From IMG/VR virus record IMGVR_UViG_3300008262_003210: a stretch of DNA of 64,000 nucleotides; one strand, given 5' to 3'. The notes below the pieces were generated by a model. That model saw only the letters and a program-made list of their open reading frames with translations, made no database searches and had not been told where the DNA came from. Position 1 is the stretch's first letter. The number at the start of each line of letters is the position of its first letter. A program made the translations under genes and the position numbers. Positions 14,131 through 32,016 of this stretch are shown one piece after another. The stretch comes from a virus (taxonomy: Duplodnaviria; Caudoviricetes).

Positions 14131-14150
14131 CATTAAACATGGAGAATCAT

Positions 14151-14882
14151 ATGAAAGACATTTTACAAGACCTAGTAGCACATACACACAGCCTGGGATT
14201 TATTCCTCTAGTTAAAATCAGTTCTACTAATCAAGCAACTGAAATTGAAGCTATGGCTGAGGATCGTAGTGTTATTGTTAACGCAAAAACTAAAACGCCG
14301 GTTGACGAATTAGAGGGCGTGTTTGGCATGCCAAACCTAAATAAACTAGACATTCATTTGAAATGTCCAGAATATAAAGAAAACGCAAAGATTAGTGTAA
14401 CTAAGGCACAGCGTAATGGAGAAGAAATTCCAACAGGCTTGCACTTTGAGAATAAAGACGGCGACTTTGAAAACGACTATCGTTTTATGAGCACTGAAAT
14501 TATCAATGAAAAATTGAAAAGTGTTAAGTTTAAAGGTGCCAAGTGGGACATCGAATTTGAACCTAGCGTTGCAAGTATTCAACGTTTAAAGTTCCAAGCA
14601 AATGCACACAGTGAAGAAAGTGTTTTCCAAGTAAAAAGCGAAGACAGTAACTTAGTATTCAGCTTTGGTGATGCAAGTACACACGCAGGAGAATTTGTAT
14701 TCCATGCTGGAGTTACTGGTAAACTTAAACAAACTTGGTCATGGCCTGTTGTACAAGTTATGAGCATTCTTAATTTGTCTGGTAACATTACCATGAAAAT
14801 TGCAGATGTTGGTGCTATGATGATTACTGTAGACAGTGGTGTTGCAACATATGACTATATCTTGCCAGCTCAGAGTAAGTAA
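14151..14882 (+). CDS. DNA polymerase sliding clamp (gp45/PCNA-like)
   Basis: ~243 aa, beta-rich two-domain pattern ending YDYILPAQ; near polB; GGAG SD at 14141. Confidence 0.6.
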   Translation: MKDILQDLVAHTHSLGFIPLVKISSTNQATEIEAMAEDRSVIVNAKTKTPVDELEGVFGMPNLNKLDIHLKCPEYKENAKISVTKAQRNGEEIPTGLHFENKDGDFENDYRFMSTEIINEKLKSVKFKGAKWDIEFEPSVASIQRLKFQANAHSEESVFQVKSEDSNLVFSFGDASTHAGEFVFHAGVTGKLKQTWSWPVVQVMSILNLSGNITMKIADVGAMMITVDSGVATYDYILPAQSK

Positions 14883-14884: not shown

Positions 14885-15235
14885 ATGAATAGCGTACAAA
14901 TATTATCTGGGTGTTTGGCATTCTTAGTCTTATGTGGCGCAGTTTATCGCCACATAGGATTTGATAAAATAAAAGAATGTTACGGCATGTGGTTTACAAA
15001 GGAATACTGGACTGACTACAATACTGTAGAGTTTGCTAGTTGGGCGGCAAAAGCCTGTATCATTATTCCTGGCTTAATATTTGGTATTAGTATTTGGTGG
15101 TTGTATTTCTTTACACTAGCAACAAGTCTAACACTTATCTGGGCTAGTGAAAAGAAACTATTACCTACTCTCGTAGGATTTAATACTATATGGGCATGGA
15201 TTAGCTGTATGGTACTGGCACAACATTTAATATGA
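14885..15235 (+). CDS. small multi-pass membrane protein
   Basis: 116 aa with about four hydrophobic segments; ATGA-coupled to the TGT-like gene. Confidence 0.7.
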   Translation: MNSVQILSGCLAFLVLCGAVYRHIGFDKIKECYGMWFTKEYWTDYNTVEFASWAAKACIIIPGLIFGISIWWLYFFTLATSLTLIWASEKKLLPTLVGFNTIWAWISCMVLAQHLI

Positions 15236-16797
15236 ATAAAAATCTAACAGCGGCACAAAACGATTACGCATATTTCTTACCAGCAACATCAGGATTCTAT
15301 GCTACATTCATAGGAAAACAACGTTATGGTAACTATGTTGATCCTGCACGACTTCCTAAAGTATGGAAAAATGGAGTAGAAGGATTAAACTATCTAGAAC
15401 CTGAAAAAGGTTTGTTCTACTACGACCATTGTTTGTATTCAGCAGGCCATGCTAATCTCGATTTGAATAAACAAGACGAAGGTGAAGACATGTTCCGTAA
15501 TAGGGACCGTAGCACCAGTTGGGTACTTGGCGATTCGGGTGGATTCCAAATTGGTAAAGGCGTGTGGGAAGGTGACTGGAAAAATCCCAACTGTCCCAAA
15601 GCACAAAAGAAACGTGAACAAGTTCTCAAGTGGATGGATGCACTTATGGATTATGGAATGTGTTTAGATATTCCTGCCTGGGTCGCTCGCAGTCCTGCTG
15701 GTCAAAAAGCCACAGGTATTACCACATACGCAGAAGCAGTACAAGGAACTTATATTAACAACGATTGGTTTGTAAACAATCGTAATGGTAATTGTAAATT
15801 TTTAAATGTTCTTCAAGGTGAAAACCACGGCGATGCCGATGATTGGTATGACCGAATGAAAAAATATTGCGATCCTAAAGTCTATGGCGACCGTGCTTTT
15901 AACGGTTGGGCCATGGGTGGACAAAATATGTGCGATGTACACTTGGTCTTGAAAAGACTAGTGGCACTGAGATTTGATGGACTGTTAGAAAAAGGCCAGC
16001 AAGACTGGATGCATTTCTTAGGTACATCAAAATTAGAGTGGGCATTATTGCTCACAGACATTCAACGTGCTGTAAGGAAATATCATAATGAAAACTTTAC
16101 CATATCTTTTGACTGCGCCTCACCGTTCCTTGCAACAGCAAACGGTCAAATCTACGTCCAAACAGAAATCGAAGACAGAAAAAAATGGCTCTATAGAATG
16201 TTGCCGTCTATTGATGACAAAAAATATGCAACAGACTCAAGACTCTTCCAAGATGCAGTAATACAAGACAATTTCTTTAAATCATTTACTACAAGTCCAG
16301 TTATGGATGGGGTTGAAATTAAAGATATTTGCATATACAAACCTGGCGACTTAAATAAAATAGGTAAAGAAGGCCGTACATCTTGGGACAGTTTTAGTTA
16401 TGCTATCATGATGGGACACAATGTTTGGCAACATATTAATAGTGTACAAGAAGCCAATCGTCAATACGATGCAGGACTATGTCCAAATATGTTAGTCGAA
16501 GAACGTTTCCAAAGAACCTACTTCAAAGATGTTGTAGAGGCCATTTTTGCAACATCAAATCGAGCAGAAGCAGAAGCTATTATTGACGATTTTGATAAAT
16601 TTTGGCAAGCTATTCCTGGTACTCGTGGTGCAATAGGCAAGAAAACGGTTAATGCAAGTACCAAATATTTCGAATTATTTGACGAAGTGGCCGCTTCTAA
16701 TGTACAATTAGAGGAAGGACACAGTGAAGAATTCACTGAAGATGAAATTGATAAACTAGATGACCTGGAAGTACAATTACATAATGACTCTCCCTGA
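15232..16797 (+). CDS. dpdA: TGT-fold guanine transglycosylase (DpdA-like, 7-deazaguanine insertion)
   Basis: LGDSGGFQI, CLDIP, NVLQG, WAMGG, HFLG, SFDCAS and MGHN motifs; folE/queD/queE nearby. Confidence 0.8.
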   Translation: MNKNLTAAQNDYAYFLPATSGFYATFIGKQRYGNYVDPARLPKVWKNGVEGLNYLEPEKGLFYYDHCLYSAGHANLDLNKQDEGEDMFRNRDRSTSWVLGDSGGFQIGKGVWEGDWKNPNCPKAQKKREQVLKWMDALMDYGMCLDIPAWVARSPAGQKATGITTYAEAVQGTYINNDWFVNNRNGNCKFLNVLQGENHGDADDWYDRMKKYCDPKVYGDRAFNGWAMGGQNMCDVHLVLKRLVALRFDGLLEKGQQDWMHFLGTSKLEWALLLTDIQRAVRKYHNENFTISFDCASPFLATANGQIYVQTEIEDRKKWLYRMLPSIDDKKYATDSRLFQDAVIQDNFFKSFTTSPVMDGVEIKDICIYKPGDLNKIGKEGRTSWDSFSYAIMMGHNVWQHINSVQEANRQYDAGLCPNMLVEERFQRTYFKDVVEAIFATSNRAEAEAIIDDFDKFWQAIPGTRGAIGKKTVNASTKYFELFDEVAASNVQLEEGHSEEFTEDEIDKLDDLEVQLHNDSP

Positions 16798-17047
16798 TGA
16801 AAGATATCGTGCTGTAGTACAAACTCGCAGATTTTTATTTGATTTGTGTAATCCACAGCATACTCCTAGAGTTCCAAAACTCATAAGAGATACTGCTCGC
16901 AGTATGCTTCGTCATTATCCCAGCGATTGGGATATGAACCGTGCTGCCGAAGGTGCTCCTGATGTTTTTCAAGAACGCATGGAAGCAGTAACAAGACTTA
17001 TAAAACAATACGAACAATCTAAGGCCGAAAAGAATGAGCAAACGTAG
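16784..17047 (+). CDS. small conserved-type hypothetical protein (MTLPDERYRAV..LRHYP)
   Basis: ORF overlaps both neighbours. Confidence 0.65.
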   Translation: MTLPDERYRAVVQTRRFLFDLCNPQHTPRVPKLIRDTARSMLRHYPSDWDMNRAAEGAPDVFQERMEAVTRLIKQYEQSKAEKNEQT

Positions 17048-17918
17048 TTTAGTAGTGGGTATGGGCATAGGACAGTTATACAAAACTGTTCTAGAAAAGC
17101 TCGGCCACGAAGTTGTTACTGTTGACCAAGATATAAGCAAAGGTGCTATGTTGCCTAGTGTAGATTCAGCAATGCTAGTGCATGGTCCTTTCGACACCGT
17201 ACATATTTGCACACCAAATTTTACACATTTTCAGTTAGCGGCTAAGGTTGCACCTGTTAGTAAAATAGTGTTTATCGAAAAACCTGGGGTTGCTAATGCA
17301 GATAATTGGGCTACCTTATCACATACATTTAAAGATACACGTTTCATGATGGTTAAAAACAACATGTGGCGGAGTAATATAAACGAGTTAAAAGAATTAG
17401 CTACTAAAGCCAAAAAAGTTGAAATTACATGGGCAAGAAAGAATTGTATCCCTAGTCCAGGCAGTTGGTTTACTACTCGTAAATTAGCATTCGGTGGTGT
17501 TAGTAGAGACCTTATGCCGCACTTATTAAGTCTTTATATTGCTATGAATCCCACTTGGCGCAGAGAACAACAAACTGGGAAACATTCATTGCAATGCTGG
17601 AATCTAGAAAGTATTGATAGTACCGAGTATGGAATAATAAATCCAAAAGGCACATATGATGTAGATGACCGCTGTCATCTACTGTTCGGTGATAAGTGGC
17701 AGTTACTAGCAGACTGGCGCACTATGAAAGAAGATGATAGTTCTATCAAGTTTATCATGGAAGATAACAGTGAAGAACGGTTTGAATTAGGTTGGTGTCC
17801 TGAAGAGGCATATCTAAATATGATTAAAGATGCAGTTGCTAATGTAGACGATGATGATTTTTGGCAACAACAGTTAGAATACGATTATTGGATCCATCAA
17901 AGGATTGAAAACTTATGA
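17034..17918 (+). CDS. Gfo/Idh/MocA family NAD(P)-dependent oxidoreductase
   Basis: VVGMGIG Rossmann motif, ICTPNFTH, FIEKPG and DLMPH. Confidence 0.85.
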   Translation: MSKRSLVVGMGIGQLYKTVLEKLGHEVVTVDQDISKGAMLPSVDSAMLVHGPFDTVHICTPNFTHFQLAAKVAPVSKIVFIEKPGVANADNWATLSHTFKDTRFMMVKNNMWRSNINELKELATKAKKVEITWARKNCIPSPGSWFTTRKLAFGGVSRDLMPHLLSLYIAMNPTWRREQQTGKHSLQCWNLESIDSTEYGIINPKGTYDVDDRCHLLFGDKWQLLADWRTMKEDDSSIKFIMEDNSEERFELGWCPEEAYLNMIKDAVANVDDDDFWQQQLEYDYWIHQRIENL

Positions 17919-18811
17919 CACGCTGTTTACAAACAACAGGGCAAGGCTACTTTGAAGAAGTAGAATATAATAAGCCAGAACCAGGTCAGTATGAGATTGA
18001 AGTTAAAGCTGTAATGACCGGAGTTTGCCGAAGCGACATTGATATGATGATGGGAAATTTTGGACCATTACCATTACACATGCAAGGTCATGAAGGATTA
18101 GGAATTGTAACTAAAGTAGGCACAGGTGTTGCTAAGGTACAGGTCGGGGACATTGTTGCTACCCGCGGTGAACCTGCGTATGCCGATTATTACAACACTA
18201 AGATTGAAGAATTTGTTGTAGTTCCAGAAGCCAACCCCAAATACATATTAGAACCAGTTGCTTGTGGTATTAACCTTATTAATCAAGCCAAAGAAGAAAT
18301 TGAAAAACGTCAAGGTATCAACTCTAAGATGTTAATTTTAGGTAGCGGATTTCTTGCTTGGGTTGCGTTTCATACTATGCGGTTGAATGGTTTCATTTAT
18401 CAAGTGGATGTGTTAGGTTCTAATAACTTAGAACTTTGGGGAGATAGGCTATTGATGGCAACTACTGAAAGTTATGATGTAGTTGTAGACGTAAGTGGCA
18501 AGTACGGGCTGGGTACATACATAAACCTAAATAACAATGCATTAGTTATTGATGCAGTTGGCAAGACTATTGATAAAAAAGAAGCCGAAACAATGTTATG
18601 GAAGGCTGTCACTACTGTCAGACCTAGTCCACGTAATCAACAATTTATCGAATGTATGCATTTTGCCAAACACTGGATTGAAAACGGCTATCTAGAGGTT
18701 GATAGTTTTTGGACTAGAGCATATAATCGTGATACAGAGTGGCAACAAGCGTTTGCGGATGGTATGGATCGTCCAAACGGTTACAGCAGAGGTTATATTA
18801 AATGGGACTAA
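17915..18811 (+). CDS. Zn-dependent medium-chain (MDR) alcohol/polyol dehydrogenase
   Basis: GVCRSD, GHEG, VGDIV, LEPVAC and ILGSGFLA; no structural-Zn Cys lobe. Confidence 0.85.
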   Translation: MTRCLQTTGQGYFEEVEYNKPEPGQYEIEVKAVMTGVCRSDIDMMMGNFGPLPLHMQGHEGLGIVTKVGTGVAKVQVGDIVATRGEPAYADYYNTKIEEFVVVPEANPKYILEPVACGINLINQAKEEIEKRQGINSKMLILGSGFLAWVAFHTMRLNGFIYQVDVLGSNNLELWGDRLLMATTESYDVVVDVSGKYGLGTYINLNNNALVIDAVGKTIDKKEAETMLWKAVTTVRPSPRNQQFIECMHFAKHWIENGYLEVDSFWTRAYNRDTEWQQAFADGMDRPNGYSRGYIKWD

Positions 18812-19374
18812 ACACTGAAGAACGACAAGACGTTGTTTACTTTACAGGGTATGAAGTCGAACATACTATTTGCTATGGTATGTTTACATTGTTTGTTGTA
18901 GGTACGCCGCCTTTAGAAGAAATTTTGCGTAAGGCAGACGACACTCAGTCAATGCTAGACGAAAACAAACGTATCAAACATATTTACTTTGGTACAAGTC
19001 AGAGTTTTAATCCAAAAGCTATGACTCATGGAGAATATAAAGCATGGGATGAAGTTATCTTTGGATGCTTAAAGAAAGACTACTGGGTGACTTTAGACTT
19101 TGGTGTCGAACACACAGAAGGCGTAATTGAATCTGGTTATTCCGAATATCCTAGATTTGTTCCTATGATTAGTGTAAAATTACCGTACATTAATCAATTC
19201 AACTATAATGCCACACTTAAACTGGATGACCGAACTTGGGGTGCTACAAATCCAGGTGTGTGGACACATCACCTACAGAGCCTGATGAGTAAAGACAAGT
19301 ATACTCATTGGGATCAGTACACTCAAGATACACAACTATTATTATCAGACAAGATCAAAGACCTAACAAAATGA
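18802..19374 (+). CDS. hypothetical protein embedded in the deazaguanine operon
   Basis: 190-aa ORF overlapping both neighbours. Confidence 0.75.
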   Translation: MGLNTEERQDVVYFTGYEVEHTICYGMFTLFVVGTPPLEEILRKADDTQSMLDENKRIKHIYFGTSQSFNPKAMTHGEYKAWDEVIFGCLKKDYWVTLDFGVEHTEGVIESGYSEYPRFVPMISVKLPYINQFNYNATLKLDDRTWGATNPGVWTHHLQSLMSKDKYTHWDQYTQDTQLLLSDKIKDLTK

Positions 19375-19733
19375 TATGGGTTACCTTCCGCAAAGAAGGC
19401 ATACATAAATACCCTGCGGCGCTGACAGATTCGGCGTTGGCTACAGGAGATGAATATGATGTATCGTTTTTGGGTTATCCTCATCGCCACATCTTTCATT
19501 TCAGGGTGTGGATCAATGTGCTCCATAATGACAGGGACATCGAGTTCATCCAGTTCAAACGATGGCTCGAGTCGTTGTATAATGGTCAAGGTGCCGTTCT
19601 AAGCCTTGACTATAAAAGTTGCGAAATGATGTCAGATGATTTACATGACATTATCAGCAAAAAGTATCCAGGCCGTGAGGTTTGGATTGAGGTCTCCGAA
19701 GACGGAGAAAATGGTTCATTTATCAAATATTAA
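19371..19733 (+). CDS. queD: QueD-like / 6-pyruvoyl-tetrahydropterin synthase-like T-fold protein (may start at ATT 19338)
   Basis: GIHKYP, YPHRHIFHF (HxH metal motif) and KSCEM. Confidence 0.7.
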   Translation: MIWVTFRKEGIHKYPAALTDSALATGDEYDVSFLGYPHRHIFHFRVWINVLHNDRDIEFIQFKRWLESLYNGQGAVLSLDYKSCEMMSDDLHDIISKKYPGREVWIEVSEDGENGSFIKY

Positions 19734-19747
19734 AATAAGAGGCTATA

Positions 19748-20011
19748 ATGGCTAAGAATTACAAGGATTATTCCTATTTCGAAAATCGTCCTGATGTTGT
19801 CAAAATTTTTGACGACTTAGATAAATTACTTAACTTCTGTCGATTTGAGATGCTTCCGTTTAACGAAGCGGATCTATATAACAGACAAAGCCGTGTATGG
19901 CAACAGTACGAACGATTTGGTCGTCCACGTAAGCCATGGAACGGTGAGAAAAAGCCATGGAACGGTGAACGTAAACCTTACCAAGGCAATAAGCCACGTT
20001 ATAACCAATGA
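19748..20011 (+). CDS. hypothetical protein with a KPWNGE repeat tail
   Basis: 87-aa ORF; AAGCCATGGAACGGTGA duplicated at 19931 and 19952. Confidence 0.7.
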   Translation: MAKNYKDYSYFENRPDVVKIFDDLDKLLNFCRFEMLPFNEADLYNRQSRVWQQYERFGRPRKPWNGEKKPWNGERKPYQGNKPRYNQ

Positions 20012-21105
20012 CAGTATTCTTAGTTGACTTAGAAGCAGTTGACACACGGTACACGGGACAATGGAAGTCCCATGTACCTGCTCTCTTACGAAAGGCTGGA
20101 CACAATGTTCAAATTATTGACGGCCCTGAAGATATCCCTCGTGCTACCACTCCAGGCGCTTTTCTCAATTTTGGTGGTACTAACATATATAAGTCTGTAC
20201 AAGTTGAAAAAATTGGCAGACTATTTTGCGATGGACGCATTCATGCTGGCGACCACTTTATTTTTACTGATGCTTGGCATCCGGGCATTATAAATCTAAA
20301 ATACATGAGTGAACTATTACAAACTCCTGTAAAAATTCACGCATTATGGCATGCTGGTAGTTACGATCCAGCAGACTTTTTAGGCAGACTTATTGGTAAT
20401 AAACCTTGGGTTAGGCATGCCGAGAAAAGTTTTTTTGCTGCTATCGATTACAATTATTTTGCTACAGATTTTCATATTAAAATGTTTGTTACAAACCTTT
20501 TAAATGATTATCCTACAGAAAATCCGTGGTTAGGTGAAGATTTAGCAGAAATACTAGACGGAGGTTGGCCTAATATAGTACGTTCCGGGTGGCCAATGGA
20601 GTATATGGGAGACACTTTACTACCATATAAAAATATGCCCAAGCGTAATCTTATTCTTTTCCCACATCGTATTGCACCAGAAAAACAAGTTGAAATATTT
20701 AGAGATTTAAAAGAACACTTGCCTCAATACGAGTTTGTTATTTGTCAAGAACGAGAATTAACTAAAAACGAATATCATAATTTATTAGGCGAAGCTAAAA
20801 TAGTGTTTAGTGCTAACTTACAAGAAACACTAGGCATTAGTTGTTATGAAGGTGCTGTAGTTGATGCTATTCCTATGGTGCCAGATAGACTCAGTTACAC
20901 AGAAATGTATTACGATACTTTTAAATATCCAAGTCATTGGACAGAAAATTTTGAAGCATACGATGCTCATCGTCCATTGTTATGCAGTAAAATTATACAG
21001 TTTATGGATAATCACTCAAAATTCATACCGACTGTACGTAAACAAGCGAGAGATTTACATGACAGATTTTTCAGCGCAACCAAGTTGCTCAGTAACATCA
21101 ATTGA
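20008..21105 (+). CDS. GT-B fold glycosyltransferase (GT4-like)
   Basis: FPHRIAPEKQ and the E-x7-E motif ETLGISCYE, followed by VPDRLSYTEM. Confidence 0.8.
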   Translation: MTVFLVDLEAVDTRYTGQWKSHVPALLRKAGHNVQIIDGPEDIPRATTPGAFLNFGGTNIYKSVQVEKIGRLFCDGRIHAGDHFIFTDAWHPGIINLKYMSELLQTPVKIHALWHAGSYDPADFLGRLIGNKPWVRHAEKSFFAAIDYNYFATDFHIKMFVTNLLNDYPTENPWLGEDLAEILDGGWPNIVRSGWPMEYMGDTLLPYKNMPKRNLILFPHRIAPEKQVEIFRDLKEHLPQYEFVICQERELTKNEYHNLLGEAKIVFSANLQETLGISCYEGAVVDAIPMVPDRLSYTEMYYDTFKYPSHWTENFEAYDAHRPLLCSKIIQFMDNHSKFIPTVRKQARDLHDRFFSATKLLSNIN

Positions 21106-21511
21106 ATCGTTAGATTTATCAGCATTAGATACTATTACTCTTACAAATACAGGATCTAGTTATTCATCGGACACTTTTGTTGTTGACTTAGGAACTGGGT
21201 CTGGTGGTGGATCTTCTTATTACACTATAAACAATTCTGGAAGTTTTGGAACTATAACTACCACAACCATAGGCGGTGGCGGTAGTGGCTATGGATCTGG
21301 CTCAATAAATATTGGTCCTATAACTTCTCTCGATTTTAAAGACATGTTTAAGAACCAAGAATGGAAAACTGGATTTCCAGAATGGAATAGAATACAAAAA
21401 ATGTGTGAACAGTATCCTGGATTAAAAATTGCTTTTGAGAAATTTAAAACAACATATAAATTAGTTCAGGACGACTACGATGCACCGCCAGAAAAAAGAA
21501 TAAAACCATAA
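21059..21511 (+). CDS. hypothetical protein with a Ser/Thr/Gly-rich low-complexity N-terminus
   Basis: ATG 21059 in the 20861 frame. Confidence 0.6.
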   Translation: MTDFSAQPSCSVTSIESLDLSALDTITLTNTGSSYSSDTFVVDLGTGSGGGSSYYTINNSGSFGTITTTTIGGGGSGYGSGSINIGPITSLDFKDMFKNQEWKTGFPEWNRIQKMCEQYPGLKIAFEKFKTTYKLVQDDYDAPPEKRIKP

Positions 21512-21936
21512 TGAGCTATACTTATACAACAACCAACACAACAGGCGCAGGACTTAGTGGAACAGGCAGTACTGGTAATATTACACTAAATGGCGGTAGC
21601 CACATTTATACTACCAATACAGGTACAACTGGGCAATTTTTAACATCGTCTGGTAGTAATGGTACGGCGTGGACTATTGGTACTACCACTACTCCATACG
21701 ACAACGTAATGATTGTTAAAAACAGTCCGGCAGAACTAGAAGTCAAAGGTCGAATGGTTCTTAATGGTAGAGACTTAGAAGAACGATTAAAGATCATTGA
21801 AAAAGTATTGACTATTCCCGAACGAGATGTTAAACTAGAAAAGAAGCATCCAAAACTTAAAAAGATGCATGATGACTATATTAAGGAATTGTCCAAATAT
21901 AGAATGTGGGAATCAATTAAAGGAGATGACGAATGA
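21511..21936 (+). CDS. hypothetical protein with a Thr/Gly-rich N-terminus
   Basis: 141-aa ORF, TAATG-coupled. Confidence 0.7.
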   Translation: MSYTYTTTNTTGAGLSGTGSTGNITLNGGSHIYTTNTGTTGQFLTSSGSNGTAWTIGTTTTPYDNVMIVKNSPAELEVKGRMVLNGRDLEERLKIIEKVLTIPERDVKLEKKHPKLKKMHDDYIKELSKYRMWESIKGDDE

Positions 21937-22169
21937 GAGATTTACATCCTGACGTAGCACATACTGCCAATGAAATGATTATTAAAGAAAACGAAGGTTT
22001 TAGACTTCGTATGGAAAAATGGGAAAGCATAAATCCCAAAGGCTTGTTTGCCGTAGATTTGATTCAAGAAAGTCTTGATGAAGACGGAGATGTTTGTCAA
22101 ACTAGTACATATAGTTTTAATATGACTAAAGAAGAACTACAAACTCTTGCACACGGTTTAACTGCATGA
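21933..22169 (+). CDS. hypothetical protein
   Basis: 78-aa ORF with ATGA overlaps. Confidence 0.65.
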   Translation: MRDLHPDVAHTANEMIIKENEGFRLRMEKWESINPKGLFAVDLIQESLDEDGDVCQTSTYSFNMTKEELQTLAHGLTA

Positions 22170-22657
22170 AGAAAGTTTATTACACTTGGCAACAAGTAGA
22201 AGGTGCATGTTTAGACATTGCTAGACAAATGCATAGTCACTATTGGCGGCCGGATTATATTGTCGGTATTACAAGGGGCGGGCTTGTTCCTGCCAATTTG
22301 CTTAGTCAATATACTGGCATTAAGATGAACAGTCTTGATATTAGCCTGCGTGATGGCGGAGATTGTGTTAGCAATCTTGGCATGGCCGAAGATGCGTACA
22401 AAGGCAAAAATATTTTAATAGTTGACGACATTAATGATCAAGGGTCAACTGTTAATTGGATTAAAAATGATTGGCCTAGCGGTTGTTTTCCAGATGATCC
22501 TAAATGGAACAGCATCTGGGGAGATAATGTTCGTTTTGCAGTATTAACACACAATCAATCAAGTCAATTTAAAGATCCTGACTATTATGTCTGGACTGTA
22601 AACAAAGCAGAAGAGGACTGCTGGTTAGTATATCCTTGGGAGGAATTTTGGTTATGA
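22166..22657 (+). CDS. type I phosphoribosyltransferase (xanthine/guanine PRTase-like)
   Basis: IVGITRGG, PRPP-binding LIVDDINDQGST and C-terminal WLVYPWE. Confidence 0.88.
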   Translation: MKKVYYTWQQVEGACLDIARQMHSHYWRPDYIVGITRGGLVPANLLSQYTGIKMNSLDISLRDGGDCVSNLGMAEDAYKGKNILIVDDINDQGSTVNWIKNDWPSGCFPDDPKWNSIWGDNVRFAVLTHNQSSQFKDPDYYVWTVNKAEEDCWLVYPWEEFWL

Positions 22658-22854
22658 TAATTAAATCAATTTTTAAATTAATATTAGGTATTGTATTAAT
22701 ACTCGCTGTAATTATTCTCGGTCCAATACTAGGTATTTGGTCTTTAAATACATTATTTCCTGTACTTAATATTCCGTACACTTGGCAGACCTGGGCTGCA
22801 TTCTTGTTACTGTTTGGTAGTGTAACAGGACTAAGATTTGGATCAAGAAAATGA
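22654..22854 (+). CDS. small two-helix membrane protein
   Basis: Hydrophobic 66-aa ORF. Confidence 0.6.
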   Translation: MIIKSIFKLILGIVLILAVIILGPILGIWSLNTLFPVLNIPYTWQTWAAFLLLFGSVTGLRFGSRK

Positions 22855-23027
22855 GCTTAACTATTAACGCATTAAAAGAAAAAATTGCTAAAGTAGAACA
22901 GGACATGCTAGACTTACGATCAACAGGAGATGCTAGTCGTAAATTCGAAGTGTTAAGCGAGTATAAATCTTATTTAGAAGACGAACTTAGAATGCTAAAA
23001 GATGAAGAACGTAAATCAAAAACATAA
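22851..23027 (+). CDS. 58-aa coiled-coil protein (absent from the supplied ORF track)
   Basis: MSLTINALKEKIAKVEQDMLDLR..KSKT*; ATGA overlap; fills the gap. Confidence 0.65.
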   Translation: MSLTINALKEKIAKVEQDMLDLRSTGDASRKFEVLSEYKSYLEDELRMLKDEERKSKT

Positions 23028-23256
23028 AGCAGTAGGCGAAGAGTTTTTATTTCCTGATGCCGAAACAACTATTCGGTTAGCATGGGAAAATCAAAACAAA
23101 TATTGGTGGAACGAAGTTTGTGCCGATGTTGTTAAAGTATTTGGTTTACCTGGGGATCGTTTTACTAGTCACCCTACTCCAGACTACATGGATTTTCATT
23201 TTAAATCAAAAAAGGATGCGGATTTATGTCGTATAATGTTAAGCGAGAAACTGTAG
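23002..23256 (+). CDS. hypothetical protein
   Basis: 84-aa ORF. Confidence 0.6.
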   Translation: MKNVNQKHKAVGEEFLFPDAETTIRLAWENQNKYWWNEVCADVVKVFGLPGDRFTSHPTPDYMDFHFKSKKDADLCRIMLSEKL

Positions 23257-23447
23257 AAATTTCAATAGTTATTATAGCGTCTATAATAGCTGTGCTTGTT
23301 ATGATTTTTATATTTCCAAGACAACAAGGCCGATATTACGATTGTGGTATGGCAGAATGGCATCCTGATATTCCTAATAAAGTAAAAGAAGAATGTAGGA
23401 AAATTCGAACAGAAAACTTTAAAGAAAATTTGCAAAAACCTAAATAA
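23226..23447 (+). CDS. small membrane-anchored hypothetical protein
   Basis: N-terminal hydrophobic helix followed by CxxxxWHPD. Confidence 0.6.
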   Translation: MSYNVKRETVEISIVIIASIIAVLVMIFIFPRQQGRYYDCGMAEWHPDIPNKVKEECRKIRTENFKENLQKPK

Positions 23448-23458
23448 GAGTGTATAAT
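23430..23458 (+). promoter_or_regulatory. sigma70 promoter with an embedded late core, upstream of folE
   Basis: TTGCAA-17 nt-TATAAT; TAAATA at 23441-23446. Confidence 0.65.
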
Positions 23459-23500
23459 ACACAAATATGGCGATCCACCGCCTTAACTCGGAGATTATAA

Positions 23501-24337
23501 TTGACAACTAAATTTACACCAGATCCTGTATTAAATGCAGACACTAACAAAGACTTTGTTGAAGAAACATTCGAAGACAAGTATGTTCCTTTACCGCAAA
23601 AAGTTTATATAAAGGCCGGCGAAATGATGAGTGACAAAGGATATGAAGAAGCATATCTAGCAGATGTCATTCGTACTAAAATGAAACGTGAAAACAAACG
23701 TTTCTGGGCTGGAGATAACATTAGCGACTTCTTACATGAAGGCGATAAAGAAAAACTAATCGACGAAGCAACAGAAGCATTTGAACTAGTGCTTGATCGT
23801 TTGCTGATTGACAGAGAAAATGATCCTAACAGCAAAGGTACAGCAAGACGTCTTGCTAAAATGTACTTTAATGAAATAATGGCAGGTAGATATGAACAAG
23901 CACCAGAAGCAACAGCGTTCCCAAATGATACGGAGGACCGTTACGAAGGTATGTTGGTTGTTCGTAGCGAGCTTCGCAGTATGTGTAGCCATCATCACCA
24001 ACCCGTTGCTGGCGTTGCTTATATTGGCATTATTGCTGCCCAGAAGCTTATTGGTCTCAGCAAGTACACACGCATCGCCCAGTGGTGTGCCCGTCGAGGT
24101 ACTCTCCAGGAGGAACTTTGCAATGACATTGCTAGGGAAATCCAAAAAGCTACAGGAGCCAAAGACATAGGCGTGTACATTCAAGCAGTACACGGTTGCT
24201 GTGAGAACCGTGGTATTATGGCACATAGTAGTTTGACTCAGACTACAGTATTAAAAGGTGCATTTAAAGACGACCATGGAACTAAGAAAGAATTCATGGA
24301 TAATATTAAACTACAACAGGAGTTTGCCCCAAGATGA
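23501..24337 (+). CDS. folE: GTP cyclohydrolase I
   Basis: TARRLAKMY, SMCSHHHQP, GLSKYTR, LQEEL and HGCCENRG; TTG start after GGAG. Confidence 0.95.
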   Translation: MTTKFTPDPVLNADTNKDFVEETFEDKYVPLPQKVYIKAGEMMSDKGYEEAYLADVIRTKMKRENKRFWAGDNISDFLHEGDKEKLIDEATEAFELVLDRLLIDRENDPNSKGTARRLAKMYFNEIMAGRYEQAPEATAFPNDTEDRYEGMLVVRSELRSMCSHHHQPVAGVAYIGIIAAQKLIGLSKYTRIAQWCARRGTLQEELCNDIAREIQKATGAKDIGVYIQAVHGCCENRGIMAHSSLTQTTVLKGAFKDDHGTKKEFMDNIKLQQEFAPR

Positions 24338-24549
24338 CAACTGCAAATGAACTTACTCAACAATTAATTGACCGAGCTAAAAATTTAAAAGAATTCGTAG
24401 TTCGAAGAGAATTTGACTATATTCCAGCCGGTGTGGTCAAATTTAATGTTCAACATACACAAGGAGAACTAGCTCGTATATTTGTTCATGCTTTAACACA
24501 AGAAGAAGCAGAGCAAATGGTCGACGAATGGTTTAATGTTTATGGATGA
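24334..24549 (+). CDS. hypothetical protein
   Basis: 71-aa ORF with ATGA overlap. Confidence 0.6.
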   Translation: MTTANELTQQLIDRAKNLKEFVVRREFDYIPAGVVKFNVQHTQGELARIFVHALTQEEAEQMVDEWFNVYG

Positions 24550-24772
24550 TAAAAATTTAATTAATACCTATCATGAGTTTATGACACTAACTGATCGATT
24601 GCTAAGAGAAGAAGTTAGAGCAATCGAAATTGCACCGATATTAATTAAGTTAGGATTAGAAATTTACAAAACAGTTCTTCCAGAAAACGAATACGAACGT
24701 ATGGTCGATTATATCTATGCTCATAAAGACGAGATAAATGATCTAAAACATTTTTTACCGGAATTACATTAA
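24536..24772 (+). CDS. hypothetical protein
   Basis: 78-aa ORF. Confidence 0.6.
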   Translation: MFMDDKNLINTYHEFMTLTDRLLREEVRAIEIAPILIKLGLEIYKTVLPENEYERMVDYIYAHKDEINDLKHFLPELH

Positions 24773-25251
24773 TGAAAGCACAAGAGCCAGCAGAAGGTAT
24801 TTTAAAAAGTAGCGATTTTGGTGATAGTAAATTCTATCAAGTTGTTTGCGGGTGTGGACAACCATATCATTCCCATCAAGTCGAAGTAGAAGCAGATGAC
24901 ACCGGTGTCAATGTTAATATCTACGCATCTGCTCATACCAGCTACTGGAGTGAATTCATTAAAAAACGATATGACATTGATAGCATTTGGTTGCAAGAGC
25001 TCGATTGGGCAATAAAGGACCTAATTAATAGTTTTGTAAATCGAATTAAAGTAACATGGGAAGTTTGGACTACTGGTTCAATTAAAGTTGAAACTACTAT
25101 TGTTATGAGTGAGCAACAGGCTTTAAACTATGCAAAGACATTAGAAAATGCTATTACTGATGTAAAGAAATTTAAAGAAAAAAATAAAACAAATAAAAAC
25201 AACATCAACTCAATAACTAAAATTTTAGCAGAGGAAGGCGATTGTGTCTAA
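24772..25251 (+). CDS. hypothetical protein
   Basis: 159-aa ORF with CGCGQPYH. Confidence 0.65.
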   Translation: MKAQEPAEGILKSSDFGDSKFYQVVCGCGQPYHSHQVEVEADDTGVNVNIYASAHTSYWSEFIKKRYDIDSIWLQELDWAIKDLINSFVNRIKVTWEVWTTGSIKVETTIVMSEQQALNYAKTLENAITDVKKFKEKNKTNKNNINSITKILAEEGDCV

Positions 25252-25513
25252 TAAAATTCAAGAAATATTAGATATATTGCAAGAAGAATGTGGCGAACTG
25301 GTTGTTGCCGCTAGTAAAGTTCGTCGATTTGGCCTAGACAACAGTTATAAGGACGGCGGTACCCAGCGAGAACACTTGACACAAGAAGCAGGCGATGTTA
25401 TGCTAATGATTAATCTATTAGTCGAACAAGGTGTGTTTAGTAAAGACGAACTGTCAGCAGCACAGCATCGCAAACAAGAAAAACTTAAAGTGTGGTCAAA
25501 AATATATGAGTAA
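25244..25513 (+). CDS. MazG-like all-alpha NTP pyrophosphohydrolase
   Basis: LQEECGEL..LTQEAGDV (EExxE..ExxD); 89 aa. Confidence 0.7.
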   Translation: MSNKIQEILDILQEECGELVVAASKVRRFGLDNSYKDGGTQREHLTQEAGDVMLMINLLVEQGVFSKDELSAAQHRKQEKLKVWSKIYE

Positions 25514-26369
25514 AATTAAAATAGCAGAACTGTTTTACAGTATCCAAGGTGAAGGTAGGTACATGGGTGTACCTAGTGTCTTTTTACGTACATTTGGATG
25601 TAACTTCAAATGTGCAGGCTTCGGTATGCCACGTGATACAATTAGTATTGAAGCAGACGATATTGCATACACACATGCAAATATTGAGTCATTTCAAAAG
25701 TATGAAGACTTGCCGTTAGTATCTACAGGTTGCGACAGCTATGCAAGTTGGCATCCTGCGTTTAAAGATTTATCTCCAATGCTAACTAGCGATGCTATTG
25801 CTGATCGCATTGCAGAAATTATTCCGCACGGTGAATGGAAGGACGAGCATCTCGTCATCACTGGAGGTGAGCCATTGCTCGGTTGGCAACGTGCTTATCC
25901 AGACTTGCTACGTCATCCTAAGATGGCCGGTCTTAAAGAAATTACATTTGAAACAAATGGTACTCAGAAATTAACAGAAGAGTTTAAAGAATATCTAGTA
26001 GAATGGCAAATGCCTAACTTGGATTTTGCTAGAGAAGTTACATTTAGTGTAAGTGCTAAACTTCCATGTAGTGGAGAAAAGTGGGATGAAGCTATTCTTC
26101 CAGAAGTGGTTTGCGAATATGAACAAGTTGGTACAGCATACTTGAAGTTTGTTATTGCTACAGAACAAGACTTTGCTGATGCCGAATGTGCTATCGGCGC
26201 ATATCGTGCTGCAGGATTTAAAGGACATATTTATCTAATGCCAGTAGGCGGTGTTGAAAGTGTTTATGCACTAAACAATCGTACAGTAGCAGACTTAGCA
26301 ATGAAGAATGGCTTGCGCTACAGTGATAGGTTGCAAGTGCCGTTATTTAAAAACGAGTGGGGTACTTAA
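25506..26369 (+). CDS. queE: 7-carboxy-7-deazaguanine synthase (radical SAM)
   Basis: ELFYSIQGEG, FLRTFGCNFKC..GCDS, VITGGEP, ETNGT, SVSAK and LKFVI. Confidence 0.9.
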   Translation: MSKIKIAELFYSIQGEGRYMGVPSVFLRTFGCNFKCAGFGMPRDTISIEADDIAYTHANIESFQKYEDLPLVSTGCDSYASWHPAFKDLSPMLTSDAIADRIAEIIPHGEWKDEHLVITGGEPLLGWQRAYPDLLRHPKMAGLKEITFETNGTQKLTEEFKEYLVEWQMPNLDFAREVTFSVSAKLPCSGEKWDEAILPEVVCEYEQVGTAYLKFVIATEQDFADAECAIGAYRAAGFKGHIYLMPVGGVESVYALNNRTVADLAMKNGLRYSDRLQVPLFKNEWGT

Positions 26370-26659
26370 TGAACCTTTGGCAAAAAGTTAAAGACTTCTG
26401 GATTCGAAGTTACACTAGTGATCGTCGTGCATTTTACTACGAGACTGTTGCCAGTGCCTGTGTATTTGTATCTATGACATGGATCAGTGTTACTGCACAA
26501 CACCCACCAATGCATTTAATTTATCCAGTAAGTTTTTTTGGTGCTGTTTTTAGTATCTTGGCATTTACTAGAAGAGGAGCTGGTTGGCCGCTAGTGATGA
26601 CTTGTTACTTTGCTTGTTTACATATATTTGGGTTCGGAAGAGCCATGGGGTGGTATTAA
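26369..26659 (+). CDS. small three-helix membrane protein
   Basis: Hydrophobic ORF, TAATG-coupled to queE. Confidence 0.65.
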   Translation: MNLWQKVKDFWIRSYTSDRRAFYYETVASACVFVSMTWISVTAQHPPMHLIYPVSFFGAVFSILAFTRRGAGWPLVMTCYFACLHIFGFGRAMGWY

Positions 26660-26660
26660 T

Positions 26661-27092
26661 ATGAAAAAATTTTTAAAACGAATTCTTGGAATTGATAAGT
26701 TAGAAAAAGAAAAAGAAGAACTTCAAGCTGTAAGAGATAAAGCAGTAGCAGAAGCAGTAAGAGCTAAGGAAGCAGAGGAACTGGCTAAATTAACTCCAAA
26801 GGATCGTGCTACTAAAAAAGGCGAGCCTTGGGTAGCTGTACTAGATACTAAAATTAATAAAGATAATGTTCGCAACGGTTTCTTTGAATTAGATTGGAAC
26901 GAACATTTTATAACAGAACTCAAAAAAGCTGGGTATGGTTATGACGGTGATCCTGAAGAAGAAATTGTTGATCGTTGGTTCAGAGATCTTGCTGCAAACA
27001 TGCTAGCCGAAGCAGGACAAGATCCTAGTAGACACAATGCAGGTTACATAAATGTAACTAAACTTGCAGACGGAAAAGCAGTTATAGAATGA
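26661..27092 (+). CDS. hypothetical protein
   Basis: ATG 26661 in the 26610 frame. Confidence 0.7.
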   Translation: MKKFLKRILGIDKLEKEKEELQAVRDKAVAEAVRAKEAEELAKLTPKDRATKKGEPWVAVLDTKINKDNVRNGFFELDWNEHFITELKKAGYGYDGDPEEEIVDRWFRDLAANMLAEAGQDPSRHNAGYINVTKLADGKAVIE

Positions 27093-27667
27093 AAATAATT
27101 GAAAGTAACGACTATATTGATTTGTACGATTGGTCTTCTTTAATAAAACAAGAAGATAACGAACAAATTAAAAATATATCTAAAGGCATTATTGATTCTG
27201 GAAACTATTTTACCAATAGTCCAAAGTTTCAAACCAAGCAAAATTTATTTGCTAGGCCAGAACGTGTTTTTTTAAAAATGCGTCAGAGTTTTATCTATAG
27301 TTGTTTTATGTATTTAGACAAAGAAGTTAAAATTAAAAACATCATGAGCTGGGTTTTTATGACTAACAACGAAACAGCCGAGGATAGGGATAATTTTTGG
27401 CACAATCATCATATCAGTGACAACAACGGAACTACTGATACACTTAGCGGTGTTTGGTATGTACACATTCCAAAAGTAGAAAATCAAGATATTACAGGAA
27501 CAGAGTTTTCTGTAAACCCAAAACCAAATTTTGAAGATACATATTTCTTAAAACCGAATCATTTGACATGGAACATATATTCTAGTAAACTGTGGCATAG
27601 ACCCGGTATTTGTGATACTAGCGAATATCGATTTGTTTTTGCCGCAGATATGGAATATTACAAATGA
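27089..27667 (+). CDS. putative 2OG-Fe(II) oxygenase-like protein
   Basis: WHNHH..LSGVWYVHIP..LWHRP..RFVFAAD jelly-roll pattern. Confidence 0.55.
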   Translation: MKIIESNDYIDLYDWSSLIKQEDNEQIKNISKGIIDSGNYFTNSPKFQTKQNLFARPERVFLKMRQSFIYSCFMYLDKEVKIKNIMSWVFMTNNETAEDRDNFWHNHHISDNNGTTDTLSGVWYVHIPKVENQDITGTEFSVNPKPNFEDTYFLKPNHLTWNIYSSKLWHRPGICDTSEYRFVFAADMEYYK

Positions 27668-28650
27668 CATACATTCTGGTTGATACAGCCAATACATTCT
27701 TTCGTGCTAGGCACGTAGTTCAAGGCTCTGCTGACATTAAGTTGGGCATGGCATTTCATATTACTTTTAATAGTATTAAAAAGGCTTGGAACGATTTCGA
27801 AGGCAGTCATGTTGTATTCTGTCTCGAAGGTCGCTCGTGGCGTAAAGATTTTTACAAGCCATATAAAGCTAATAGGCAAGAAACTCGTGCGGCAATGACA
27901 CAACGAGAACAAGATGAAGATAAATTGTTCTGGGAAGCCTTTGACGAGTTTAAAAACTTCATTCAAGAAAAGACTAACTGCACAGTATTACACCATCCAC
28001 AACTAGAAGCAGATGACTTGATTGCTGGGTTTATACAAAATCATCCTGAAGACAAACATGTCATCATTTCAACTGACAGTGATTTTTATCAATTGATTGC
28101 GCCTAATGTAAGTCAGTACAACGGCGTACAGGAACATCATATCACACACGAAGGAATCTTTGATGCAAAAGGTAAACGTGTTAAAGACAAGAAAACAGGC
28201 GAAGATAAAGCAGTACCAAATCCAGAATGGCTCTTGTTTGAAAAATGTATGCGTGGTGATACCAGTGATAATGTCTTCTCGGCGTACCCGGGTGTACGTG
28301 TTAAAGGTACTAAAAACAAAGTTGGTCTTACTGAAGCGTTCGAAGATCGTAAAAGCAAAGGATTTGCGTGGAACAATCTCATGCTGCAGAGATGGGTTGA
28401 CCACAATGGACAAGAGCATAGAGTCTTAGAAGATTACAATCGTAATGTTACTCTAGTCGATTTAAAAGCACAACCAGACGACATTAAAACACTTATTAAC
28501 AAAACTATCGAAGTTGATTGCGTTCCAAAAGATGTTACACAAGTTGGCATTCGTATGCTTAAATTCTGTAATACATGGGACATGAAAAAGATTGCAGATA
28601 ACATTCAGCAATATGCTGAGCCATTCCAAGCAAAATATCAGGGAGAATAA
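27664..28650 (+). CDS. rnh: RNase H / 5'-3' exonuclease (T4 rnh-like, FEN fold)
   Basis: LVDTAN, EADDLIA, STDSDFYQL and GDTSDNV. Confidence 0.88.
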   Translation: MTYILVDTANTFFRARHVVQGSADIKLGMAFHITFNSIKKAWNDFEGSHVVFCLEGRSWRKDFYKPYKANRQETRAAMTQREQDEDKLFWEAFDEFKNFIQEKTNCTVLHHPQLEADDLIAGFIQNHPEDKHVIISTDSDFYQLIAPNVSQYNGVQEHHITHEGIFDAKGKRVKDKKTGEDKAVPNPEWLLFEKCMRGDTSDNVFSAYPGVRVKGTKNKVGLTEAFEDRKSKGFAWNNLMLQRWVDHNGQEHRVLEDYNRNVTLVDLKAQPDDIKTLINKTIEVDCVPKDVTQVGIRMLKFCNTWDMKKIADNIQQYAEPFQAKYQGE

Positions 28651-30814: not shown

Positions 30815-30864
30815 ACATACATAGCGTAACAAATTCATCCGCCCTCTTTTTGAAAGGTAATACC

Positions 30865-31956
30865 ATGGCAGAAATCGTTAGTCGTACTGTAGGCCCTAAA
30901 GGCGCTAAAAAGTCCCTACGCAAGGCATTTAAAAACAAGCGTCCAATTTTCCTGTGGGGTCCTCCAGGAATTGGTAAATCTGATATTATTAAACAACTCG
31001 GAGAAGAGTTGGATGCACACGTCATCGATGTGCGTCTTAGTTTGTGGGAACCTACAGACATTAAAGGTATTCCTTACTTTGACTCAAACTCAAATAAAAT
31101 GGTTTGGGCTCCTCCTAGCGAATTGCCAGATGCTGAAATGGCAAAGCAACATAAACAAATTGTTTTGTTTATGGACGAAATGAACTCTGCGGCTCCTGCT
31201 GTACAGGCTGCGGCTTATCAGTTGGTTTTGAACCGCCGTGTTGGCACATATACACTTCCCGACAATGTTGTGATGGTTGCAGCTGGTAACCGTGAAAGCG
31301 ACAAAGGTGTTACTTATCGTATGCCTGCTCCGCTGGCTAACCGCTTTGTTCACTTGGAAATGGCAATTGACTGGGACGACTGGCAAGAATGGGCTGTTGA
31401 AAATCGCATCCATAAAGATGTAGTTGGTTTCCTTACTTTTTCTAAAAAGGACTTGTACGACTTTGATCCTAAATCCGCTAGTCGTGCATTTGCTACACCG
31501 CGTAGCTGGTCGTTTGTAAGCGAGTTGCTGTTTGATGACGACTGCGATGTTGATACACTAACTGACCTAACTTCGGGTGCAGTTGGTGAAGGACTGGCTG
31601 TTAAGTTTATGGCACATCGTAAACATGCCAGCAAGATGCCTAACCCTACTGATATTTTGAGCGGTAAGGTTAAGAAAATGGAATCTAAAGAAATTTCAGC
31701 ACAATACTCTTTGGTTGTTAGTCTATGCTACGAACTCAAAGATGCTTGCGATAAAAATGTCAAGAATTGGAACGACCAAGTAAATTGCTTCTTCCAGTTT
31801 ATGATGGATAATTTCGAAACTGAGCTTGTTATTATGGGTACTAAACTTGCCCTAAGTACTTACAAGTTGCCTTTGGATCCGGACGAGATTCAATGTTTCG
31901 ATGATTTCCATGCAAAATTTGGTAAGTATATTGCACAGGCAACCGAAAAACAATAA
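30865..31956 (+). CDS. MoxR-like AAA+ ATPase
   Basis: Walker A GPPGIGKS, Walker B LFMDEMN, AAGNRESD and LANRFVH. Confidence 0.88.
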   Translation: MAEIVSRTVGPKGAKKSLRKAFKNKRPIFLWGPPGIGKSDIIKQLGEELDAHVIDVRLSLWEPTDIKGIPYFDSNSNKMVWAPPSELPDAEMAKQHKQIVLFMDEMNSAAPAVQAAAYQLVLNRRVGTYTLPDNVVMVAAGNRESDKGVTYRMPAPLANRFVHLEMAIDWDDWQEWAVENRIHKDVVGFLTFSKKDLYDFDPKSASRAFATPRSWSFVSELLFDDDCDVDTLTDLTSGAVGEGLAVKFMAHRKHASKMPNPTDILSGKVKKMESKEISAQYSLVVSLCYELKDACDKNVKNWNDQVNCFFQFMMDNFETELVIMGTKLALSTYKLPLDPDEIQCFDDFHAKFGKYIAQATEKQ

Positions 31957-31957
31957 G

Positions 31958-31986
31958 TTGACAGGACCTTAGGGTCCTGTTAAACT
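31958..31986 (+). promoter_or_regulatory. sigma70 promoter with a palindrome filling the spacer
   Basis: TTGACA-17 nt-TAAACT; ACAGGACC-TTAG-GGTCCTGT at 31961-31980. Confidence 0.65.
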
Positions 31987-32016
31987 ATACACATAGCAAA
32001 ATTTAGGAGCAGACAC

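Follow-up and report, generated by a model that had tools for sequence, protein, structure and literature searches.

A predicted DpdL-type 7-deazaguanine DNA-modification module with a linked glycosyltransferase-like gene in an uncultured PA5oct-like jumbo phage

We analysed a stretch of 64,000 nucleotides from IMG/VR virus record IMGVR_UViG_3300008262_003210 (the window), which derives from an uncultured, metagenomic jumbo phage that is kin of Pseudomonas phage PA5oct, and studied the genes lying between positions 14,885 and 27,667 (Table 1). The best explanation of these genes as a whole, which we consider probable, is a DpdL-type module without QueC for modifying DNA with 7-deazaguanine, placed in the phage's replication region and including a dedicated glycosyltransferase (GT). 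Taken by itself, deazaguanine modification of DNA by a DpdL-type route is very likely, and the view of the first-pass annotation that this is a QueC-less phage locus for 7-deazaguanine modification of DNA is supported by FolE, QueE, the DpdL family, the tRNA-guanine transglycosylase (TGT) fold of a DpdA-like protein and the absence of QueC. The pathway type, leading to 2′-deoxy-7-deazaguanine (dDG), was described in 2023 and is already known; our strongest new result is that a GT-like gene is linked to DpdL modules.

The 521-aa DpdA-like protein, DpdL, the 190-aa protein u190 and the GT gave no significant match in Pfam, PHROGs, NCBIfam or, using phmmer and hmmsearch, the Protein Data Bank (PDB), and for the DpdA-like protein and DpdL we therefore used predicted folds and motifs from the literature instead. 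IMG/VR contains 509 related loci; as relatives we sampled 80 IMG/VR loci, 25 of which were long enough for full counts of the module genes.

The 120-aa protein that had been annotated as QueD-like does have a T-fold nearest to those of QueD and 6-pyruvoyltetrahydropterin synthase (PTPS), but its motif and profile comparisons place it in the DpdL family rather than with canonical QueD. The best PDB and Swiss-Prot matches of its AlphaFold2 (AF2) model (predicted local-distance difference test score, pLDDT, 85.5) were all QueD/PTPS, with template-modelling (TM) scores of 0.64-0.67, a probability of 1.00 and E about 2e-3. The sequence itself had no Pfam or PDB match, and 14 homologues of the protein had no match to PF01242 even at E 5. 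DpdL is defined by the motif LxxxHRHxF and was proposed to decarboxylate 7-carboxy-7-deazaguanine (CDG) to 7-deazaguanine in Cellulophaga phage phiST, which carries dDG in place of its guanines (Cui, Hutinet et al., NAR 2023; PMC10516641). The window protein reads L34-G-Y-P-H38-R39-H40-I-F42 at this position, where QueD has CxxxHGH, with Leu in place of the canonical QueD Cys; L34, H38, H40 and F42 are invariant in the 14 homologues, which include those of PA5oct and Sinorhizobium phage Phosso, as are H12 and C84-E85, and R39 is found in 13 of them. A tblastn search matched the protein inside phiST CGPG_00067, which is DpdL (33% identity over 95% of the query, E 3e-7), and the profile of the window family aligned with phiST DpdL by hhalign at 98.8% (E 9.5e-17), compared with less than 5% for the canonical QueDs of phiST and Acidovorax phage ACP17. 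The homology to phiST DpdL, the motif, the hhalign results and the presence of a separate canonical QueD in relatives rule out this gene as the QueD of the pathway. Its context fits the published one, with DpdA-like, FolE and QueE proteins in the locus, QueC absent and QueD found in the related genomes only, and the gene was present in all 38 relatives with enough downstream sequence.

The assignment of folE stood up to scrutiny, and that of queE was supported. FolE scored 137 bits against PF01227 (cut-off 27), and was also matched by phrog_2197 (7.4e-45) and NCBIfam FolE (8.7e-40). QueE was recovered by its PHROG (Table 1), and its five best NCBIfam matches were all QueE (1e-15 to 1e-10), at 41-58 bits and so below the cut-offs of 200-300; the Pfam Radical_SAM match was likewise below cut-off. 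The cluster motif of QueE (encoded at 25506-25760) has non-canonical spacing, with CNFKC, a long insert and then the third Cys in GCDS; QueE variants with inserts exist.

The reported lack of QueC, QueF and ArcS in the window was also upheld, in that no open reading frame (ORF) of at least 100 aa within 1-39 kb of the window matched their Pfam models and a phage QueC query gave nothing by tblastn across the whole window even at E 10. Extending the search for queC beyond the window to relatives again gave nothing above threshold: five related contigs lacked QueC, as did PA5oct, Phosso, ACP17 and Burkholderia phage BCSR5 (records described as complete genomes) and the phiST record, and Xanthomonas phage X1 had a QueC-like match that was sub-threshold only and lay elsewhere in its genome. 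Five of five related genomes do have a canonical QueD elsewhere, with a PF01242 match above cut-off; they are those of PA5oct, Phosso, Vibrio phage 2.275.O and two phages closely related to that of the window, and in the close relatives QueD lies 50-60 kb from the module. Because the first-pass annotation took the T-fold gene for QueD, the absence of QueC seemed unexplained and CDG was taken to be the inserted base. As the gene is DpdL, the absence of QueC is no anomaly but the hallmark published for the DpdL/dDG pathway (PMC10516641), and the base to be expected is accordingly 7-deazaguanine or a derivative of it, so that the proposal of CDG was not upheld. As a separate observation, X1 encodes a 177-aa protein of the ‘PAPS reductase family’ (PP-loop) between FolE and the GT (L096:7332-7865).

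The call of a TGT/DpdA-like gene was confirmed by the predicted fold, though no hidden Markov model (HMM) matched it. The AF2 model of the 521-aa protein, built on the family alignment, had a pLDDT of 90; its top 50 Foldseek matches in the PDB were all TGTs (TGT/ArcTGT; E 3.5e-7), the VIA Z score against solved TGTs was 17-18 (about 17.8) with ~300 residues aligned, and among viral models (BFVD) it matched transglycosylases from Vibrio phage nt-1, Achromobacter phage Motura and phiST. D101-S102-G103-G104, D146 (in LDIP; LDxP) and D294 (in FDC) are invariant across 50 diverse members of the family, their equivalence to the catalytic Asp residues of TGT being by motif position. By contrast, neither Pfam TGT (PF01702) nor DpdA (PF23859) matched the window protein or the 50 family members at E 0.01, the family profile retrieved no TGT from the PDB, and the C-terminal CxCxxC...H zinc site of tRNA TGTs is absent from the sequence. 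Fold matches to TGTs only, together with invariant Asp motifs and no Pfam match, indicate that the protein, as modelled, is a TGT-superfamily enzyme of a PA5oct-type subfamily that the Pfam models do not detect. The family comprises at least 7,900 clusters at 90% identity, with 962 representatives at 50%, and is abundant in environmental viromes. Distant members (33-38% identity) are found in loci L083-L087 (contigs with P0134 and P0173), which are small contigs, some with integrases; such small phages may rely on deazaguanine precursors from the host.

The 365-aa GT-like protein could be classified in part. Language-model features (0.96-0.99 to GT4/GT1 clusters) and an ExxxxxxxE motif, whose E273 and E281 are invariant in 25 homologues, favour the GT-B type that had been assigned to it, but the support from PF00534 is sub-threshold only: with E up to 1 allowed, eight of the 25 homologues were matched, the best at 1.1e-3, and the window protein reached 12 bits against PF00534/PF13692, below the cut-off of 26.4. 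It had no sequence match in the PDB. Annotators have named the homologues in Phosso and PAC2 glycosyltransferase.

That the gene belongs to the locus, as had been suggested, is supported by its distribution. The GT follows DpdL in 41 of the 41 relatives that extend at least 1.6 kb past DpdL. A search of 50,697 phage records placed its closer homologues (25-49% identity) exclusively in Phosso, the PA5oct group, ACP17, Xanthomonas phages X1 and BUDD and BCSR5, every one of which carries DpdL; a further group at 23.6% identity, in Xanthomonas and Erwinia phages, lay outside the DpdL-linkage comparison. The gene adjoins those for DpdA and/or DpdL in PA5oct, ACP17, X1 and BCSR5, while in Phosso it lies beside DpdL, FolE and QueE, with dpdA ~170 kb away. 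phiST is one of the DpdL phages without the GT, and the base measured in its DNA is plain dDG; Vibrio phage 2.275.O has the same DpdA subfamily together with QueC, QueF and Gat, and no match to either the GT or DpdL. We consider it probable that the GT acts in the deazaguanine pathway.

The chemistry that these genes suggest begins with established steps, in which FolE would convert GTP to dihydroneopterin triphosphate (H2NTP), the canonical QueD encoded outside the window would make carboxytetrahydropterin (CPH4) and QueE would make CDG. DpdL would then remove the carboxyl group of CDG to give 7-deazaguanine, as proposed in the literature, and the TGT-fold enzyme, judging from its fold and motifs, would exchange guanine in DNA for the deazaguanine base after replication, the inserted base presumably being 7-deazaguanine or CDG. 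Such an exchange would shield the phage DNA from restriction, and the purine phosphoribosyltransferase (PRT) of the module may salvage the guanine released. The GT, as a dedicated member of the pathway, would most likely glycosylate the deazaguanine, whether already in DNA or still a free base, and this sugar would set the GT-carrying phages apart from phiST, which has no GT and makes plain dDG. An optional pair of genes, for a Gfo/Idh/MocA oxidoreductase and a Zn-type medium-chain dehydrogenase/reductase (Gfo/MDR), and a truncated enzyme resembling UDP-glucose dehydrogenase (UGDH) would tailor the sugar or its donor. The linkage of the genes makes glycosylation of the base plausible, and we put forward tentatively, as a possibility short of an expectation, that the GT-carrying DpdL modules (those of the freshwater jumbo-phage clade of the window, the PA5oct group, Phosso, ACP17, X1/BUDD and BCSR5) make a sugar-bearing 7-deazaguanine in DNA.

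Several points weigh against this interpretation. The decarboxylase activity of DpdL is itself only proposed, even for the founding member, and the putative GT-B protein gave no HMM match above threshold. QueD was not found in the window, which is 64 kb of a contig of 207,833 bases, and distant members of the DpdA subfamily occur in small phages where neither que nor GT genes lie close by. In addition, 7-deazaguanine and CDG offer no ordinary hydroxyl to an O-glycosyltransferase, and the GT-carrying modules compared do not all share any one oxygenase or reductase; a sugar would therefore have to be attached at N2, as happens in huimycin, at a carbon of the ring, at the carboxylate or at some side chain, perhaps hydroxylated, that has so far escaped recognition. 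Two reports nevertheless hint at something beyond dDG, since PA5oct virion DNA resists restriction at several G-containing sites and was described as G-modified (PMC12191111), and expression of dpdL and dpdA of ACP17 in Escherichia coli gave no dDG, for which the authors suggested that further enzymes may be needed (PMC10516641).

Among the known systems nearest to the module is that of phiST (FolE, QueD, QueE, DpdL and DpdA3; PMC10516641), which it resembles in lacking QueC and in having DpdL with LxxxHRHxF, FolE, QueE, a TGT-superfamily enzyme and a MazG-like gene; in phiST a MazG/dUTPase-like gene adjoins DpdL (PMC10516641). The two differ in their transglycosylases, which are of 521 aa in the window and 259 aa in phiST and belong to different subfamilies (hhalign to DpdA3 only 72%), and phiST has no GT homologue, with neither Gfo/MDR nor u190 annotated in the part of its module that was examined. 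Moreover, the DNA of phiST is known to contain plain dDG. PA5oct and MIJ3 (Wroclawvirus) share with the window the neighbourhood of the family-B DNA polymerase PolB, phrog_12062, the DpdA-like protein, GT, DpdL, PRT, QueE and flap endonuclease, with identities between PA5oct and the window of ~37% for the DpdA-like protein, 39% for the GT and 55% for DpdL. The PA5oct locus departs from that of the window in having no FolE, u190 or Gfo/MDR, with a short protein resembling short-chain dehydrogenases/reductases instead, and the host and GC content of PA5oct/MIJ3 also differ. A deazaguanine system in PA5oct was noted previously by Aravind’s group (PMC7824862).

In ACP17, X1/BUDD and BCSR5, as in the window, the GT, DpdL, QueE and FolE are clustered with DpdA and there is no QueC over threshold, and ACP17 also has a homologue of u190. 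However, the DpdA of these phages belongs to another subfamily, aligning with that of the window by hhalign at 93-96% (96% for ACP17) with no BLAST match; ACP17 has canonical QueD inside its module, unlike the window; and Gfo/MDR is found in none of them. The α- and β-glucosyltransferases of phage T4 are GT-B enzymes that decorate 5-hydroxymethylcytosine in phage DNA, allowing it to evade restriction. Their likeness to the window GT is in concept only, as the T4 acceptor is a hydroxymethyl group on a pyrimidine, and 7-deazaguanine and CDG are not known to carry a comparable hydroxyl. The tubercidin pathway resembles the window in lacking QueC and in combining CDG with a PRT, and the huimycin pathway in having a GT that glycosylates a 7-deazapurine base, but both are secondary-metabolite clusters of actinomycetes without a nucleic-acid transglycosylase.

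The GT-carrying modules might instead make plain dDG, as in phiST, and the GT do something else, such as glycosylating a protein or a component of the host envelope, serving as a non-catalytic partner of DpdA or acting on another metabolite. We judge this unlikely, though it deserves serious consideration, because DpdL, QueE, FolE and DpdA without QueC are the published dDG gene set (PMC10516641), there is no obvious acceptor group on 7-deazaguanine and the GT call is sub-threshold by HMM. Against it stand the confinement of the closer GT homologues to DpdL phages, where they are embedded between DpdA, DpdL and QueE in at least five divergent lineages, the retention of the GT in all 41 relatives and the failure of the ACP17 dpdL and dpdA genes, in the absence of the GT, to yield dDG in E. 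coli.

We considered two further explanations. In one, the PRT and phosphoribosyl pyrophosphate (PRPP) make a deazaguanine nucleotide, the MazG-like protein trims dGTP and PolB incorporates the analogue, leaving the TGT-fold protein with another role. A purine-type PRT is indeed present in the window and PA5oct modules, as is a MazG-like ORF in the window, and the tubercidin pathway, which is QueC-less, uses a PRT, TubE, that acts on CDG (bioRxiv 10.64898/2026.04.15.718813). We nevertheless find this route improbable, as the PRT is missing from ACP17, X1, BCSR5, Phosso and six of the 25 long relatives and MazG is found in only six of the 25, whereas every one of these modules has a TGT-fold enzyme whose catalytic-type Asp motifs are intact; salvage of guanine freed by base exchange accounts for the PRT equally well. 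In the other, the product is a free small molecule, a pterin or deazapurine glycoside serving as a phage metabolite, as with the cyanobacterial pteridine glycosides or huimycin (N-acetylglucosamine on a preQ0 derivative). FolE, a T-fold enzyme, a GT and dehydrogenases would fit the logic of a pterin glycoside, and HuiG shows that a GT can act on free 7-deazapurines. The first-pass annotation had argued that a pterin glycoside is the weaker proposition, and we agree: the location of the module in the replication region, from PolB to the flap endonuclease, and the constant presence of the TGT-fold transglycosylase, together with the restriction evidence for G-modified DNA in PA5oct and the optional nature of the dehydrogenases, make a free glycoside very improbable.

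Eight 7-deazaguanine bases are, to our knowledge, known in DNA, none of them with a sugar. A search of the accessible literature found no mention of a conserved coupling between a GT4-like protein and DpdL, of the u190 family or of a variable tailoring slot, and nothing beyond the papers cited here on glycosylated deazaguanine, the chemistry of PA5oct/MIJ3 or follow-ups on DpdL. The tie between a GT-like gene and QueC-less DpdL modules points to an undescribed derivative, which could explain both the G-modification of PA5oct and the failure of ACP17 dpdL and dpdA to make dDG. If glycosylation is correct, no purine hypermodification with a sugar would have been described in a phage genome before, and the optional Gfo/MDR and UGDH-like cassettes, with the halogenase-like one of some relatives, would diversify the adduct between close relatives. 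Given the very large size of the DpdA-like family and its abundance in viromes, the modification would be ecologically widespread, and it is directly testable because several carriers, including a candidate therapy phage, have been cultured. The answer bears on the resistance of phages to restriction, CRISPR and modification-dependent nucleases.

Table 1. Features of the module and its immediate upstream neighbours, with coordinates in the window.
Feature	Coordinates	Strand	Evidence or remark
Short UDP-glucose/nucleotide-sugar dehydrogenase-like protein, 261 aa	13320..14105	+	PF00984 3.5e-23, PF03721 2.3e-13; accessory
phrog_12062 protein	14139..14882	+	phrog_12062 1.3e-38; context, outside the pathway
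116-aa ORF	14885..15235	+	Directly upstream of dpdA; no Pfam/PHROG match
DpdA-like guanine transglycosylase, 521 aa, TGT fold (predicted)	15232..16797	+	AF2, Foldseek, motifs
95-aa ORF	16760..17047	+	No family match; variable among relatives
Gfo/Idh/MocA NAD(P) oxidoreductase	17034..17918	+	PF01408 1.6e-6; optional cassette
Zn-type MDR	17915..18811	+	ADH_N 1.9e-11; phrog_2640; optional cassette
u190, 190-aa protein	18802..19374	+	No Pfam, PHROG, NCBIfam or PDB match; core in the clade
DpdL, QueD paralogue, T-fold, 120 aa	19371..19733	+	Motif, fold, phiST homology
87-aa ORF	19748..20011	+	Between DpdL and GT; no family match
GT4-like (GT-B type) protein, 365 aa (putative)	20008..21105	+	Language-model features, ExxxxxxxE, weak PF00534
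Type I purine PRT, nearest xanthine/guanine PRT	22166..22657	+	PF00156 1.2e-13; NF006613 2e-13
FolE, GTP cyclohydrolase I, N-terminal extension of ~80 aa	23501..24337	+	PF01227 5.5e-40
Small MazG-like pyrophosphohydrolase (weak call)	25244..25513	+	PF03819 2.1e-4, at cut-off; accessory
QueE-like radical SAM protein, CDG synthase	25506..26369	+	phrog_2076 1.6e-50

The ORF coordinates of the first-pass annotation, all on the plus strand, were correct, and the ORFs are closely spaced, with overlaps of 4-14 nt between 16760 and 21105. Its identification of the Gfo/Idh/MocA and Zn-MDR proteins was confirmed by PF01408 and ADH_N, the former protein also having weak NCBIfam matches to xylose, inositol and UDP-GlcNAc dehydrogenases. 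It had, however, drawn on these two dehydrogenases for its idea of a decorated base, and a core role for them we reject: of 60 loci, 22 have the pair, always together, in the slot between dpdA and dpdL, and it is absent from PA5oct, Phosso, ACP17 and X1; the genes that lay behind the idea of a modified sugar or cyclitol are therefore an optional cassette. Of the suggested co-occurrence of the GT and the dehydrogenases with the DpdA clade, the GT part thus held (41 of 41 relatives) and the dehydrogenase part did not.

By contrast with the pair, u190 is found in the slot of all 60 loci, the window counted. Its homologue in ACP17 is a 132-aa ORF between FolE and DpdA (hhalign 98.6%, E 6.8e-16), and hhalign found none in the PA5oct, Phosso, X1 and BCSR5 modules. 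A relaxase-like identity for u190 was considered and set aside, since the feature score of 0.91 came with low shared counts and was judged unreliable, and a profile search of the PDB gave only noise.

The slot between dpdA and dpdL has other occupants, namely a flavin-halogenase-like protein, a sulfate permease and proteins without an assigned function. The halogenase-like protein, of 406 aa, directly follows dpdA in five relatives (L053:11620-12840, L054, L075, L076 and one more), where it takes the place that Gfo/MDR has in the window; it matches PF04820 (Trp_halogenase, 4.6e-30) and has GxGxxG, with GWMFGIP instead of WxWxIP. Enzymes of this kind act on electron-rich pyrrole and indole rings, and its position beside the enzyme that would insert 7-deazaguanine is a lead to a further variant of the base. 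In one relative, a membrane protein of the sulfate-permease family (PF00916, 6.3e-50) is encoded between Gfo and MDR (L050:12375-13598).

Over the 25 long loci, u190 was found in all 25, FolE and QueE in 23 each, the PRT and the UGDH-like gene in 19 each, Gfo/MDR in 10 and the MazG-like gene in 6. Although the PRT is also present in the PA5oct module, this patchy distribution and its absence from ACP17, X1, BCSR5 and Phosso led us to reject it as a core component. The UDP-sugar dehydrogenase noted just upstream of the module was recognized in part: it retains the Rossmann motif and the GGHCFPKD motif with the catalytic Cys, and matches TIGR03026 (2e-43) over model positions 76-296 of 413, but the UDP-binding domain expected at its C terminus is missing. 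Of the small ORFs, that of 116 aa upstream of dpdA is variable, being present in a minority of relatives, and that of 87 aa between DpdL and the GT is kept in most. In Stenotrophomonas phage Ps15, a gene for myo-inositol-1-phosphate synthase lies within a FolE/QueC/TGT/QueE cluster (PMC9025141), which again hints at an association of sugar or cyclitol enzymes with deazaguanine loci in phages.

The module is bounded by PolB (10664-13330) and a flap endonuclease (27664-28650), in a window with a GC content of ~37% in which all genes from 1 to 35 kb are on the plus strand, followed by a minus-strand block with ORFs that are mostly long. Megablast of the locus against the phage collection gave zero nucleotide matches, and hence no close cultured relative; at the protein level, the 521-aa protein matched the PA5oct group (36.5% identity), Vibrio phage 2.275.O and Phosso. 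The longest related contigs, of 119-223 kb, have an estimated completeness of 33-60%, from which the genome size would be roughly 370 kb.

In all related phages the phrog_12062 protein comes after PolB, and homologues have this place in PA5oct, Phosso and Vibrio phage 2.275.O, with conflicting labels, ‘structural protein’ (from virion mass spectrometry) in PA5oct versus ‘sliding clamp beta’ in Phosso; the positions are 14139-14882 in the window, L001:10915-11661 and L094:8969-9709. Elsewhere, the window encodes the C-terminal part of a ClpB-like AAA protein (3-710), a ferritin-like protein (3917-4357) and a MoxR-type AAA ATPase with, after it, a DUF2201 metallopeptidase/VWA protein (30850-33204). 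On the minus strand, a single ORF of 4,336 aa (50769-63779), or 4,409 aa if read open to the end of the window, presumably encodes a giant virion or tail protein. The window also encodes ThyX (34699-35394), which suggests ordinary thymidylate synthesis.

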